A stretch of DNA of 64,000 bases from Eledone cirrhosa (Eukaryota): the NCBI GenBank assembly GCA_964016885.1, contig OZ024766.1, positions 17,298,001 through 17,362,000 on the forward strand, read 5' to 3'. The notes under the pieces were generated by a model. That model saw only the letters and a list, made by a program, of their open reading frames with translations. It made no database searches and was not told where the DNA came from. The position numbers and the translations under genes were made by a program. This document shows, piece by piece, positions 22,848 to 60,515 of the stretch (the first letter of the stretch is position 1; every line of letters starts with the position of its first letter).

Positions 22848-22970
22848 CAATGCAAGTCCTTCCATTGAATATAAAGCCAGTCTGGCAGTTACAACCATAA
22901 CCCCCTAGTTGGTTTTCACAGCTACCATTCGGTGTACAAAGACTGGAGTCCTGTTCACATTCATCAACAT
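22848..22970 (-). CDS. cbEGF exon: [41 protein letters not shown]
   Basis: Pyrimidine tract + CAG acceptor, G|GTAAGT donor; 6 Cys with D-x-D-E-C and C-x-N-x-x-G-x-Y-x-C-x-C consensus. Confidence 0.92.
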
Positions 22971-23137
22971 CTGGAGTTTGACAGAGAGAAAAGAGGTTGG
23001 TTGATGAGATTGTTATTCTTTTTTTTCTTTCTTTGTTCCCTTTCCTATATATTTGTTTCTGTTTTCGTTCTTTTTATTTATTTGTGTGTTTACTGATTCA
23101 CTTTTTTAAAACATATTATATATTTTATTAACCATTT

Positions 23138-23635
23138 AGCATTTACATTACTCTATATATACTATTGTATTGTCACAGTAAAGGCTTTACCTCACATAAC
23201 ATTTACATTACTCTATATATACTATTGTATTTACACAGTAAAGGCTTTACCTCACATAATATCTCACATAACATTTACATTACTCTATATATACTATTGT
23301 ATTGTCACAGTAAAGGCTTTACCTCACATAACATTTACATTACTCTATATATACTATTGTATTGTCACAGTAAAGGCTTTACCTCACATAATATCTCACA
23401 TAACATTTATATTACTCTATATATACTATTGTATTTTCACAGTAAAGGCTTTACCTCACATAATATCTCACATAACATTTACATTATTCTATATATACTA
23501 TTGTATTTTCACAGTAAAGGCTTTACCTTACATAACATTTACATTACTCTATATATACTATTGTATTGTCACAGTAAAGGCTTTACCTCACATAATATCT
23601 CACATAGCATTTACATTATTCTATATATACTATTA
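23138..23635. repeat. 72-bp minisatellite with 60-bp variants; further arrays at ~30363-31673, 35237-36130, 38099-39052, 41468-42493, 44465-45346, 47572-48789, 51495-52376, 54283-55103, 57978-58786, 60683-61564
   Basis: Unit CACAGTAAAGGCTTTACCTCACATAATATCTCACATAACATTTACATTACTCTATATATACTATTGTATTGT; gives the YCHSKGFTSHNI pseudo-ORFs. Confidence 0.95.
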
Positions 23636-23729
23636 AAACCCACAAGCAGGTAATACATACATCTCTGTCTCTCTCCATATATATATATATATATATATAT
23701 ATATATATATATATATATATATATATATA

Positions 23730-23850
23730 GGGACGAGTATGACCCCGACGGCAGAGCTCAAGCCGTTTCCACGGCTATTTCTGGACTGAATTACTCCAGA
23801 ATTAGTCGTTGAAATGGCTTGAGCTCTGCCGTCGGGGTCATACTTGTTCC
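23730..23850. repeat. 121-bp imperfect palindrome (MITE-like), one per cassette; copies start at 31754, 36195, 39121, 42562, 45417, 48866, 52447, 55208, 58859, 61629
   Basis: GGACGAGTATGACCCCGACGGCAGAGCTCAAGCCGTTTC...GAAATGGCTTGAGCTCTGCCGTCGGGGTCATACTTGTTCC, flanked by TA. Confidence 0.9.
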
Positions 23851-57100: not shown

Positions 57101-57687
57101 CTTTGTGAAGTGGTCATGTAGGTGTCACAACAAAAGGTGCCCAGTCCACGCTGTAAAGTGGTCATGTAGGTGTCACAACAAAAAGTACCCCGTCCACACT
57201 GTAAAGTGGTCATGTAGGTGTCACAACAAAAGGTACTCAGTCCACACTGTAAAGTGGTCATGTAGGTGTCACAACAAAAAGCACCCAGTCCACACTGTAA
57301 AGTGGTCATGTAGGTGTCATAACAAAAAGTACCCAGTCCACTCTGTAAAGTGGTCATGTCGGTGTCACAACAAAAAGTACCCAGTCCACTCTGTAAAGTG
57401 GTCATGTAGGTGTCACGACAAAAAGTACCCAGTCCACACTGTAAAGTGGTCATGTCGGTGTCACAACAAAAAGTACCCAGTCCACTCTGTAAAGTGGTCA
57501 TGTAGGTGTCACAACAAAAGGTACTCAGTCCACACTGTAAAGTGGTCATGTAGGTGTCACAACAAATAGTACCCAGTCCACACTGTAAAGTGGTCATGTA
57601 GGTGTCACAACAAAAAGTACCCAGTCCACACTGTAAAGTGGTCATGATGGTGACAATGATGACATTAGTGATGATAAAGTTACCTAC

Positions 57688-57810
57688 CAATGCAAGTCAT
57701 TCCATTGATTATAAAGCCATCATGGCAGTCACAACCATAACTCCCTGGTAGGTTTACACAGGTACCATTCGGTGTACAAACATTGGAATCCTGTTTACAT
57801 TCATCAACAT
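57688..57810 (-). CDS. cbEGF exon: [41 protein letters not shown]
   Basis: CAG acceptor, variant donor G|GTAGGT. Confidence 0.9.
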
Positions 57811-60392
57811 CTGGAGTTTGACAGAGAGAAAAGAGGTTGGTTGATGAGATTGTTTTTCTTTTTTTTCTTTCTTTGTTCCCTTTCCTATATATTTGTTTCT
57901 GTTTTCGTTCTTTTTATTTATTTGTGTGTTTACTGATTCACTTTTTTAAAACATATTATATATTTTATTAACCATTTAGCATTTACATTACTCTATATAT
58001 ACTATTGTATTGTCACAGTAAAGGCTTTACCTCACATAATATCTCACATAACATTTACATTACCCTATATATACTATTGTATTGTCACAGTAAAGGCTTT
58101 ACCTCACATAACATCTCACATAACATTTACATTATTCTATATATACTATTGTATTGTCACAGTAAAGGCTTTACCTTACATAACATTTACATTACTCTAT
58201 ATATACTATTGTATTGTCACAGTAAAGGCTTTACCTCACATAATATCTCACATAGCATTTACATTATTCTATATATACTATTGTATTGTCACAGTAAAGG
58301 CTTTACCTCACATAATATCTCACATAACATTTACATTACTCTATATATACTATTGTATTGTCACAGTAAAGGCTTTACCTCACATAATATCTCACATAAC
58401 ATTTACATTATTCTATATATACTATTTTATTGTCACAGTAAAGGCTTTACCTCACATAATATCTCACATAACATTTACATTACTCTATATATACTATTGT
58501 ATTGTCACAGTAAAGGCTTTACCTCACATAATATCTCACATAACATTTACATTACTCTATATATACTATTGTATTGCACAGTAAAGGCCTTACCTCACAT
58601 AATATCTCACAAAACATTTACATTATTCTATATATACTATTGTATTGTCACAGTAAAGGCTTTATCTCACATAATATCTCACATAACATTTACATTACTC
58701 TATATATACTATCGTATTGTCACAGTAAAGGCTTTACCTCACATAATATCTCACATAGCATTTACATTGTTCTATATATACTATTAAAACCCACAAGCAG
58801 GTAATACATACATCTCTGTCTCTCTCCATATAAATATATATATATATATATATATATAGGGACGAGTAGGACCCCGACGGCAGAGCTCAAGCCGTTTCGA
58901 CGGCTATTTCTGGACTGAATTACTCCAGAATTAGTCGTTGAAATGACTTAAACTCTGCCGTCGGGGTCATACTTGTTCCTATTACCCATTCTACTACCTT
59001 AAGTATTGAGTACTTTGGTGCGTTATGGTCCATTTGGTTCCTTACCACATTTCCTTTGTTATATATATATACGTATATATATACATACACACATACATAC
59101 AGGATGTCCCCCTTAAATGGATACACTTTTTATGAGAATGCTGTTGAAGTGTGCATGCGTTTTGGGGGGACATCCTTGCATATATACACATACATGCATA
59201 TATATATATATATATATATATATATATGTTATCTTGTGAGTAAATTGTAGTTAGTAGCGGTGATAATGGTTAAGAAATATCCACAATGTAACGAGGATTA
59301 CTGCTATGGGAAATTAGATACGTTCCAAAGAAATATCCACGATGTGGCAAGGATTACTGCAATAGGAAATTAGATACTGTAAAGTGGTCATGTAGGTTTC
59401 ACAACAAACAGCACCTAGTCCACACTGTAAAGTGGTCATGTAGGTGTCACAACAAAAAGTACCCAGTCCACACTGTAAAGTGGTCATGTAGGTGTCACAA
59501 CAAAAAGTACCCAGCCCACACTGTAAAGTGGTCATGTAGGTGTCACAACAGAAAGTACCCAGTCCACTCTGTAAAGTGGTCATGTAGGTGTCACAACAAA
59601 AAGTACCCAGCCCACTCTGTAAAATGGTCATGTAGGTGTCACAACAAACAGCACCCAGTCCACACTGTAAAGTGGTTGTGTAGTTGTCACAACAAAAAGT
59701 ACCCAGTCCACACTGTAAAGTGGTCATGTAGGGGTCACAACAAAAAGTACCCAACCCACCCTGTAAAGTGGTCATGTATGTGTCACAACAAACAGCACAC
59801 AGTCCACACTGTAAAGTGGTCATGTAGGTGTCACAACAAAAAGTACCCAGTCCACACTGTAAAGTGGTCATGTAGGTGTCACAACAAATAGCACCCAGTC
59901 CACACTGTAAAGTGGTTGTGTAGGTGTCACAACAAAAAGTACCCAGTCCACACTGTAAAGTGGTCATGTAGGTGTCACAACAAAAGTACCCACTTCACTC
60001 TGTAAAGTGGTCATCTTGTTGTCACAACAAAATGTACCCAGTCCACACTGTAAAGTGGTCATGTAGGTGTCACAACAAATAGCACCCAGTCCACACTGTA
60101 AAGTGGTTGTGTAGGTGTCACAACAAATAGCACCCAGTCCACACTGTAAAGTGGTTGTGTAGGTGTCACAACAAAAAGTACCCAGTCCACACTGTAAAGT
60201 GGTCATGTAGGGGTCACAACAAAAAGTACCCAGTCCACTCTGTAAAGTGGTCATGTTGTTGTCACAACAAAAAGTACCCATTCCACACTGTAAAGTGGTC
60301 ATGTAGGTGTCACAACAAATAGCACCCAGTCCACACTGTAAAGTGGTCATGATGGTGACAATGATGACATTAGTGATGATAAAGTTACTTAC

Positions 60393-60515
60393 CTACACAA
60401 GTCCTTTCATTGAATATAAAGCCATCATGGCAGTCACAACCATAACTCCCTGGTAGGTTGTGACAGCTACCAGAGGGTGTACAAAGACTGGAGTCCTGTT
60501 TACATTCATCAACAT
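60393..60515 (-). CDS. cbEGF exon: [41 protein letters not shown]
   Basis: CAG acceptor, AG|GTAAGT donor. Confidence 0.92.

Follow-up and report, generated by a model that had tools for sequence, protein, structure and literature searches.

Selection probably keeps the exons of a homogenised sixteen-exon calcium-binding EGF array distinct in the octopod Eledone cirrhosa

Why should the exons of a tandem array differ by approximately 13% when the introns repeated with them are 97–99% identical? This question was raised by a 64,000-nt stretch of the Eledone cirrhosa genome (assembly GCA_964016885.1, contig OZ024766.1, positions 17,298,001–17,362,000; hereafter the window), whose minus strand carries a run of eleven 123-nt exons, all of phase 1-1 with AG/GT ends and spaced 2.7–7.2 kb apart, that encode predicted calcium-binding epidermal growth factor-like (cbEGF) domains. 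A preliminary description of the window had reported that these exons diverge more than their introns, almost entirely by amino-acid change, and had attributed this to diversifying selection on a fixed scaffold. We extended the analysis to 100 kb on either side of the window and found that the complete array comprises 16 cbEGF exons, five of them 5' of the window, and that 13 of the 16 share a full homogenised unit consisting, in order, of exon, short donor flank, 48-bp minisatellite, unique block of approximately 400 bases, 72-bp minisatellite, and 170-base acceptor flank. The explanation that we favour, with a probability of about 0.7, is a homogenised 16-exon array in which selection removes conversions that overwrite exons and favours replacements outside the scaffold.

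Comparison of exons and introns revealed a steep contrast. Among the 11 window exons, nucleotide diversity (pi) was 0.127, against 0.0047 in the acceptor flank (3 of 171 columns variable, bearing out the reported near-invariance of this ~170-bp segment) and 0.011 in the donor flank. Among the 13 units, exon pi was again 0.127, against 0.007 and 0.010 in the flanks and 0.027 in the mid-intron block (339 columns, 12 of 13 units, the unit split by a long interspersed nuclear element (LINE) being left out), so that the claimed intron uniformity holds for the flanks and less so for mid-intron sequence. Silent sites also exceeded the flanks, with a per-site silent divergence (pS) of 0.097 and a replacement divergence (pN) of 0.136; divergence "almost entirely by amino-acid change" is thus correct as a count (37:5) and not per site. 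The array therefore shows a divergence peak: its exons, at silent sites too, are much more divergent than the paralogous introns. On recount, 21 of 41 residues varied and the 11 exons encoded nine distinct peptides, silent variation at invariant residues was confined to D8, P14, and C40, and the hot-spot residues agreed with the translations, all exactly as previously described.

Two exon types, A and B, alternate along the 13 units (BBABABABABAAB), and exon distance oscillates with lag (0.155, 0.078, 0.152, 0.109); one exon pair has been duplicated, with an intron difference of 0.3–0.5%. Of the 123 exon bases, five (two at silent positions) differ consistently between the types, whereas the 552 intron columns contain no such fixed difference (p = 0.003), and singletons made up 2 of 37 variable exon columns versus 23 of 40 in introns (p = 6e-7). 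It follows that the exon types predate the common ancestor of the introns, and the silent A/B split without any fixed intron difference makes concerted evolution with selection against exon-overwriting conversions the best model. The four-gamete test failed for 80 of 496 site pairs; the minimum number of recombination events was 9, a value probably inflated by recurrent mutation. The pattern recurred outside the array: duplicated non-EGF Cys-rich exons showed 16 differences in 130 positions (13 replacement, 3 silent) versus 3 in 550 in their flanks, and silent changes in duplicated exons numbered 4/62 versus 4/595 in flanks (p = 0.004). Likewise, two 5' modules 128 kb apart have flanks that are 99.5% identical and exons that are 12% different.

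To reproduce these numbers, we ran a toy forward model with eight settings and five runs per setting (weaker settings from another round fell short). Without shielding, even an omega (dN/dS) of 5 yielded an exon pi of 0.022, whereas rejection of conversions that overwrite amino acids yielded exon diversities of 0.07–0.18; one setting came close to the data: with shielding of 0.9, an omega of 2, and 20-nt tracts, exon pi was 0.108, flank pi was 0.007, and the silent:replacement ratio was 5:46. The observed numbers were reproduced by the shielded model only. Under the proposed mechanism, exon-plus-intron units would be homogenised by unequal crossing-over and gene conversion in probably short tracts, and selection would likely both discard conversions overwriting exon differences and favour new replacements outside the scaffold. 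Since the exon–intron contrast needs intron homogenisation together with exons shielded from it, the contrast is not itself a dN/dS signal, and the earlier interpretation is supported in part.

Purifying selection on the scaffold was clear. None of the 37 replacements among 13 exons hit a Cys or created a stop codon (p ≈ 3e-4), nor did any of the 55 among 17 exons (p ≈ 1e-5). For replacement excess we relied on minimum replacement:silent counts, which are tree-free and independent of genealogy. These were 37:5 for 13 exons (p = 0.04 and 0.02 at transition/transversion rate ratios, kappa, of 2 and 3) and 55:6 for 17 exons (p = 0.017–0.001); kappa is placed near 3 by the 20:12 transitions to transversions in the mid-intron block. 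Null simulations included gene conversion, and only runs with a diversity of 0.09–0.17 were retained (170 and 163 runs); a silent share as low as that observed occurred in none of them (0/170 and 0/163, or 0/333). Within types, pN/pS was 0.078/0.013 and 0.101/0.027. Our own codon models preferred M2a over M1a (p = 0.003 for 11 exons and 0.001 for 13), with an omega of approximately 5 at residues 17, 19, 30, and 31, but conversion produces false positives in such models, and we did not accept them as proof. As the nominal threshold was passed by 63/170 and 48/163 null runs (37% and 29%), positive selection in arrays of this kind is exaggerated by codon site models, as it is by exon–intron contrasts. 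Taken together, these tests supported diversity-keeping selection on a fixed scaffold. Extra positive selection acting on new mutations is likely as well, though its effect cannot be told apart from that of shielding, which by itself yields a replacement excess in the toy model.

Sequencing runs were examined for expression and splicing. Depth in run X4 was 370–806 over most of the exon, 4.5 in the acceptor-side intron, and 0 in the donor-side intron, from which we infer that this run, not on record as RNA, represents RNA. One X4 contig joined the 3' part of the exon ending at 30195 to the 5' part of that ending at 22970, both assignments being unique by mismatch count, and a second joint linked an A-type exon to the next exon. 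Array exons are thus spliced in series at the junctions seen, and for these, Dscam-type mutually exclusive splicing was rejected on the strength of these joints. Another contig continued from the 3' half of the exon ending at 22970 into 18 nucleotides of non-intron sequence, which shows that splicing occurs at the last array donor. X4 is another sample of the same study, perhaps of the same animal, and its variants could be assigned to assembly exons in five of six stretches checked. Run X1 covered exon and intron alike and gave the acceptor flank as a single 186-nt contig with no differences; the uniform flank is therefore not a polishing artefact, although X1 was possibly made from the sample used for the assembly. 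A single partial match of 75 nt came from run X5, and the exon lay outside the coverage of the restriction-site-associated DNA run X6.

Several results weigh against the favoured explanation. Pairwise dN/dS was 1.45 and not significant (bootstrap P = 0.20), the M0 omega of 1.7–1.9 was indistinguishable from 1, and the observed M1a/M2a statistic was reached in 13/170 and 14/163 null runs, giving a calibrated p of approximately 0.08; the tree-free count survived the conversion-aware nulls. That count itself gave p = 0.10 for whole exons at kappa 1 and p = 0.17 for transversions alone (13 exons), and between types A and B, pN (0.182) was hardly above pS (0.161). At non-scaffold residues omega reached 3.0–4.0 (p = 0.009–0.0006), a result that depends on excluding 13 residues which we take to be the cbEGF consensus and which were chosen after seeing the data. 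Silent allele density (5/30) was not significantly above that of the mid-intron block (34/339, p = 0.23). Exon-adjacent flanks were more uniform than mid-intron sequence (p = 0.027), where most shielded settings of the model predict a slight reverse; this extra uniformity suggests splicing constraint or a lower local mutation rate. As for transcripts, X4 depth was 90.7 for one twin exon pair (singles 40–46) and only 47.7 for the other, a misfit with equal inclusion. What stands of the earlier inference of diversifying selection on a fixed scaffold is the replacement excess, the intact Cys residues, and the elevated non-scaffold ratio.

Could the exon types instead be old alleles of a balanced, hyperpolymorphic locus that were captured in tandem by unequal crossing-over, their introns having been homogenised between alleles, in the manner of HLA, and not between paralogues? 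Such a history would likewise lead one to expect exon variants at intermediate frequency, silent differences between A and B, and introns that are uniform, and the two 5' modules with their near-identical flanks and divergent exons suit it as well. We nevertheless consider it improbable, as X4 variants matched assembly exons in five of the six stretches (possibly in the same animal) and the dimer periodicity requires exchange within the array anyway.

The similar silent density of exons and mid-introns (p = 0.23) is within reach of a simpler history, a recent burst of duplication with strong positive selection on point mutations and no conversion, and exon and mid-intron distances do correlate (rho = 0.36). 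Such a burst is contradicted by the silent differences fixed between types with none in 552 intron columns, by the silent excess in duplicated exons (p = 0.004), and by the four-gamete failures, and we regard it as very improbable.

A mutational process confined to exons, whether multi-base micro-conversion or retro-copying of A-to-I edited RNA, with purifying selection only, would explain why boundaries are sharp at exon edges and changes clustered in the non-EGF exons, and A/G columns do outnumber C/T columns by 11 to 3. Yet A/G changes were not enriched among replacements at kappa of 2 or more (10/37, p = 0.66), the replacement excess remained without them (p = 0.011), and only three codon edges were multi-step; moreover, a mutator would not spare silent sites. 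The retro-copy variant was rejected on the A/G results, and the process as a whole is hardly tenable. Least credible is the idea that the locus reflects an error of assembly or polishing, or is a piece of a decaying pseudogene whose array lacks its own 3' exons: despite the highly repetitive locus, the single terminal-exon pair, the inverted 5' fragment in the gap, and twin exons not clearly resolved by DNA-run depth (28 vs 29.1), it conflicts with the absence of Cys loss or stop codons among 55 replacements, the difference-free X1 flank contig (maybe from the assembly's own sample), and the X4 exon-to-exon joints.

The homogenised array kept distinct by selection lies in a larger locus, which comprises three same-strand signal exons and two Cys-rich modules followed by one sole pair of 3' exons. 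The terminal exon at 17225102 is single-copy apart from an adjoining partial copy: its 3' half is partly repeated straight after the stop codon (L018:6630-6820, minus strand; 61% at the protein level). Exon phases are compatible with splicing of each 5' cassette to the shared 3' exons, and the last array donor is in use. A second family locus was not found in the genome with two family proteins as queries, which makes the count of one a lower bound.

Octopus relatives of the terminal exon were recovered by a full HMMER scan only; a word-indexed protein search with this exon gave none of six candidates, and exon alignment led to generic fibrillins, latent TGF-beta-binding proteins (LTBPs), and adhesion G protein-coupled receptors (GPCRs). 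The two best genome matches of O. bimaculoides XP_014767841.2 were the two 3' exons of this locus (48% and 71%), and its parts and their order are the same as here. This protein, O. sinensis XP_036369522.1, and the O. vulgaris "fibulin-1-like isoform X1" (P0288) share a signal peptide, an 8-Cys domain ending in CC-x-G-W, middle cbEGFs, the 71%-identical penultimate EGF, a terminal EGF, and a tail. Judged by this shared architecture, the gene is likely the orthologue of an uncharacterised octopod secreted protein with a signal, an EMI-like domain, cbEGFs, and a short tail. Unlike in these relatives, whose EGFs are mutually divergent, one middle exon has here been expanded to 16 with its introns repeated, and the Cys-rich domain is shorter. 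Because the relatives carry about 2–6 EGFs, the expansion looks lineage-specific, unless their gene models have collapsed repeats.

Profile searches identified the array repeats as predicted calcium-binding EGF domains. Several array exons besides that ending at 60515 exceeded the cut-off of PF07645, and the six Cys, the D-x-D-E motif, the hydroxylation Asn, and the aromatic residue were unchanged in 13 of 13 homogenised units, as the preliminary description had it; in one exon of the 17-exon set, K replaces the E of the motif. The TB domain (PF00683) was absent from four family proteins at E 0.5, leaving fibrillin/LTBP identity without its hallmark. The terminal exon and the family proteins did not match the fibulin C-terminal model, matching EGF-type families instead, with a tail of approximately 35 aa. 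Identity as adhesion GPCR E (CD97/EMR) was rejected, since the frame stops ~35 aa past the last EGF and the family proteins gave no Pfam match to GAIN, GPS, or 7TM domains. The fibulin, fibrillin, and adhesion GPCR names in databases are accordingly automatic, the defining domains being absent. The exon at L001:8361-8480 (minus strand) scored 51 bits in a profile comparison with human CD97 EGF3 (other aligned domains listed, 28 or less); a fish LTBP-type repeat also matches the first exon at 63%, so this likeness is probably due to chance.

The N-terminal domain, with 8 Cys, did not match Pfam EMI at E 0.5 and showed a weak profile likeness to EMI with a predicted long two-strand hairpin; the EMI domain has seven conserved Cys, according to PMC13326518. 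Foldseek matches listed were EGF-repeat proteins, and an ESM Atlas search with the N-terminal part returned generic EGF clusters under 0.9. The predicted model of the O. bimaculoides protein had a mean predicted local distance difference test score of 69 and a predicted template modelling score of 0.28; the hot spots presumably lie on repeat surfaces.

In the long isoform of ~900 aa, the signal and EMI-like domain would be followed by as many as 19 cbEGFs and then a short tail, with splicing ~72 kb onward to the only 3' exons of the locus; no membrane segment was found in this predicted product. Calcium-linked cbEGF pairs form rods, as in fibrillin and Notch, and the product may be a calcium-stiffened rod whose exposed surface changes from repeat to repeat. 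Residues 15 and 17 toggle what we take to be N-glycan and O-fucose consensus sites between repeats, and net charge falls from +5 in the initial repeats to -5 in the array. These properties would fit a secreted, multivalent binder that follows a partner as it changes. Our best, tentative guess for the partner is microbes, with a secreted opsonin-like role; gametes or egg coats are somewhat less likely, and a structural glue or cuticle role and a salivary or other role are each a little less likely again. It is possible, though doubtful, that this is a diversified recognition locus in which alternative promoter–signal–EMI-like cassettes, one of them bearing the 16 hypervariable cbEGF repeats, on shared 3' exons give short and long secreted isoforms and the repeats are under balancing selection. 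In that case, the repeat repertoire would be expected to vary inside single animals as well as from one animal to another, much like immune or self/non-self loci.

The evolutionary mode has precedents. In human red/green opsin exon 5, RHD/RHCE, and colobine RNases, as described in PMC3924837, introns are homogenised and selection against conversion keeps an exon apart, as at this locus; those cases are gene pairs with one or two key sites, whereas here 13–16 repeats in one gene, many sites, and every duplicated exon class are involved. The Argiope MaSp2 and Nephila Flag spidroins likewise consist of iterated exon–intron units with introns ~97.6% identical and an alternating two-unit higher-order repeat (PMC9779670 and PMC3563967). 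The coding repeats of MaSp2 are themselves highly homogenised and its intron types alternate, whereas the alternation here is between exon types, with a single type of intron, the repeat is a folded domain, and point replacements are in excess. The mode is therefore known from opsins and spidroins, and for the gene and its arrangement we found no published account. In literature other than subscription journals and supplements, nothing on this gene or such a cbEGF array was found, six accessions returned no papers, and the main text of octopus omics papers mentioned neither fibulin nor fibrillin, although their supplements could list these proteins; PMC4963849 yielded only reference titles on venom phospholipases.

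In its domain order, the protein resembles Nimrod, Eater, Draper, and the EMI–EGF proteins (MEGF6, MEGF10, EGFL7), in which an N-terminal Cys-rich module with a CC-x-G-aromatic motif precedes EGF-like repeats. The family profile found one vertebrate-type EMI+EGF protein at E 5e-5 among the retrieved proteins. Unlike these, the protein of this locus has repeats of the calcium-binding EGF type, 8 rather than 7 Cys, no Pfam EMI match, and no membrane segment found. In its layout, three signal exons and two Cys-rich modules upstream of one terminal-exon pair, the locus resembles the clustered protocadherins and UGT1A, where alternative 5' cassettes share 3' exons; here the cassettes are multi-exon and splicing to a shared end is presumed from genomic layout.

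The locus provides an unusually clean single-gene case of selection keeping exons distinct against homogenisation, with the repeated introns as built-in neutral controls and the duplicated non-EGF exons as an independent repeat of the pattern. Rods of cbEGF domains generally serve as conserved modules in structure or signalling; repeats being pushed apart in a secreted octopod protein suggest a partner that is itself evolving and make the protein a concrete candidate for cephalopod recognition diversity without adaptive immunity, or for gamete recognition. The features of the locus are summarized in the Table.

Table. Features of the cbEGF array and its surroundings (window positions unless marked as contig OZ024766.1)
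Feature	Position	Strand	Basis or remark
cbEGF exon, type A, 6th of 16	60393..60515	-	Translation, alignment; Pfam EGF_CA 35.1 bits (cut-off 27)
cbEGF exon, type B, identical to 51205-51327, variant donor (+4 G)	57688..57810	-	Alignment
cbEGF exon, type A	53993..54115	-	Alignment
cbEGF exon, type B, variant donor (+4 G)	51205..51327	-	Alignment
cbEGF exon, type A	47282..47404	-	Alignment
cbEGF exon, type B, identical to 37808-37930, reference for read mapping	44175..44297	-	Alignment
cbEGF exon, type A, one base from 47282-47404	41178..41300	-	Alignment
cbEGF exon, type B	37808..37930	-	Alignment
cbEGF exon, type A	34947..35069	-	Alignment
cbEGF exon, type A, joined to next exon in X4 contig	30073..30195	-	Run X4
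Last array cbEGF exon, type B, donor used	22848..22970	-	Run X4
Acceptor-side flank (example), near-invariant, precedes every exon	44298..44467	-	Alignment; 0-difference contig in run X1
Unique mid-intron block (example), two hairpin elements	45417..45826		Neutral yardstick, pi 0.027
Further mid-intron blocks (starts)	31754, 36195, 39121, 42562, 48866, 52447, 55208, 58859, 61629
48-bp minisatellite (example), after each donor	43013..44133		Length variable from unit to unit
72-bp minisatellite (example), before each acceptor flank	44467..45345
7.5-kb expansion of 48-bp minisatellite past last array exon	15346..22806
LINE-type insertion, open reading frames 25018-26313 and 26562-29135 (431 and 857 aa from Met)	24200..29420	+	Ends approximate
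Inverted orphan copy of signal-peptide exon, one codon shorter	3990..4108	+
53-nt and 90-nt Cys-rich exons 5' of array	contig 17377904, 17379082
Two signal-peptide exons 5' of array	contig 17393533, 17413341
Second 5' module past array 3' end: signal exon; Cys-rich exons; one EGF exon	contig 17264117; 17251615 and 17250062; 17248331
Penultimate EGF exon, then terminal exon, both downstream of second 5' module	contig 17236269, then 17225102

Some further observations concern the array and its surroundings. The twin exons 57688-57810 and 51205-51327 are identical and have the same +4 G donor, although their 1.4-kb upstream sequences are 3.1% divergent; in X4, this twin is covered at the level of a single copy. 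A low-depth X4 contig (4.5) resembles the acceptor flank of the first EGF exon. Among the three signal exons (17413341, 17393533, and 17264117), the signal peptide shows one silent and three replacement changes, and the next 20 codons show four silent and 14 replacement changes. Window positions 1640-9560 (plus strand) hold an inverted partial copy of the 5' region, with the promoter side, signal exon, and following intron, that is up to 99% identical to contig positions 17261648-17263229; downstream exons were not found after it on the plus strand.

Mobile and repetitive elements were also observed. The element at 24200-29420, which we presume to be LINE-type from its motifs, splits the mid-intron block of the last array intron in antisense to the gene. 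A second LINE-type element (L001:8750-10000 and L002:1-4100) lies just before the first EGF exon and is 97–99% identical to contig positions 17202398-17207758. Just upstream of the third signal exon, contig positions 17265500-17277000 (L013, L012) form an array of 476-bp units, mostly 100% identical, with an inversion point near 17269400. Three near-identical tandem copies of a retrotransposon fragment (period ~5.4 kb) end at the left edge of the window (1-840, L011, L012).

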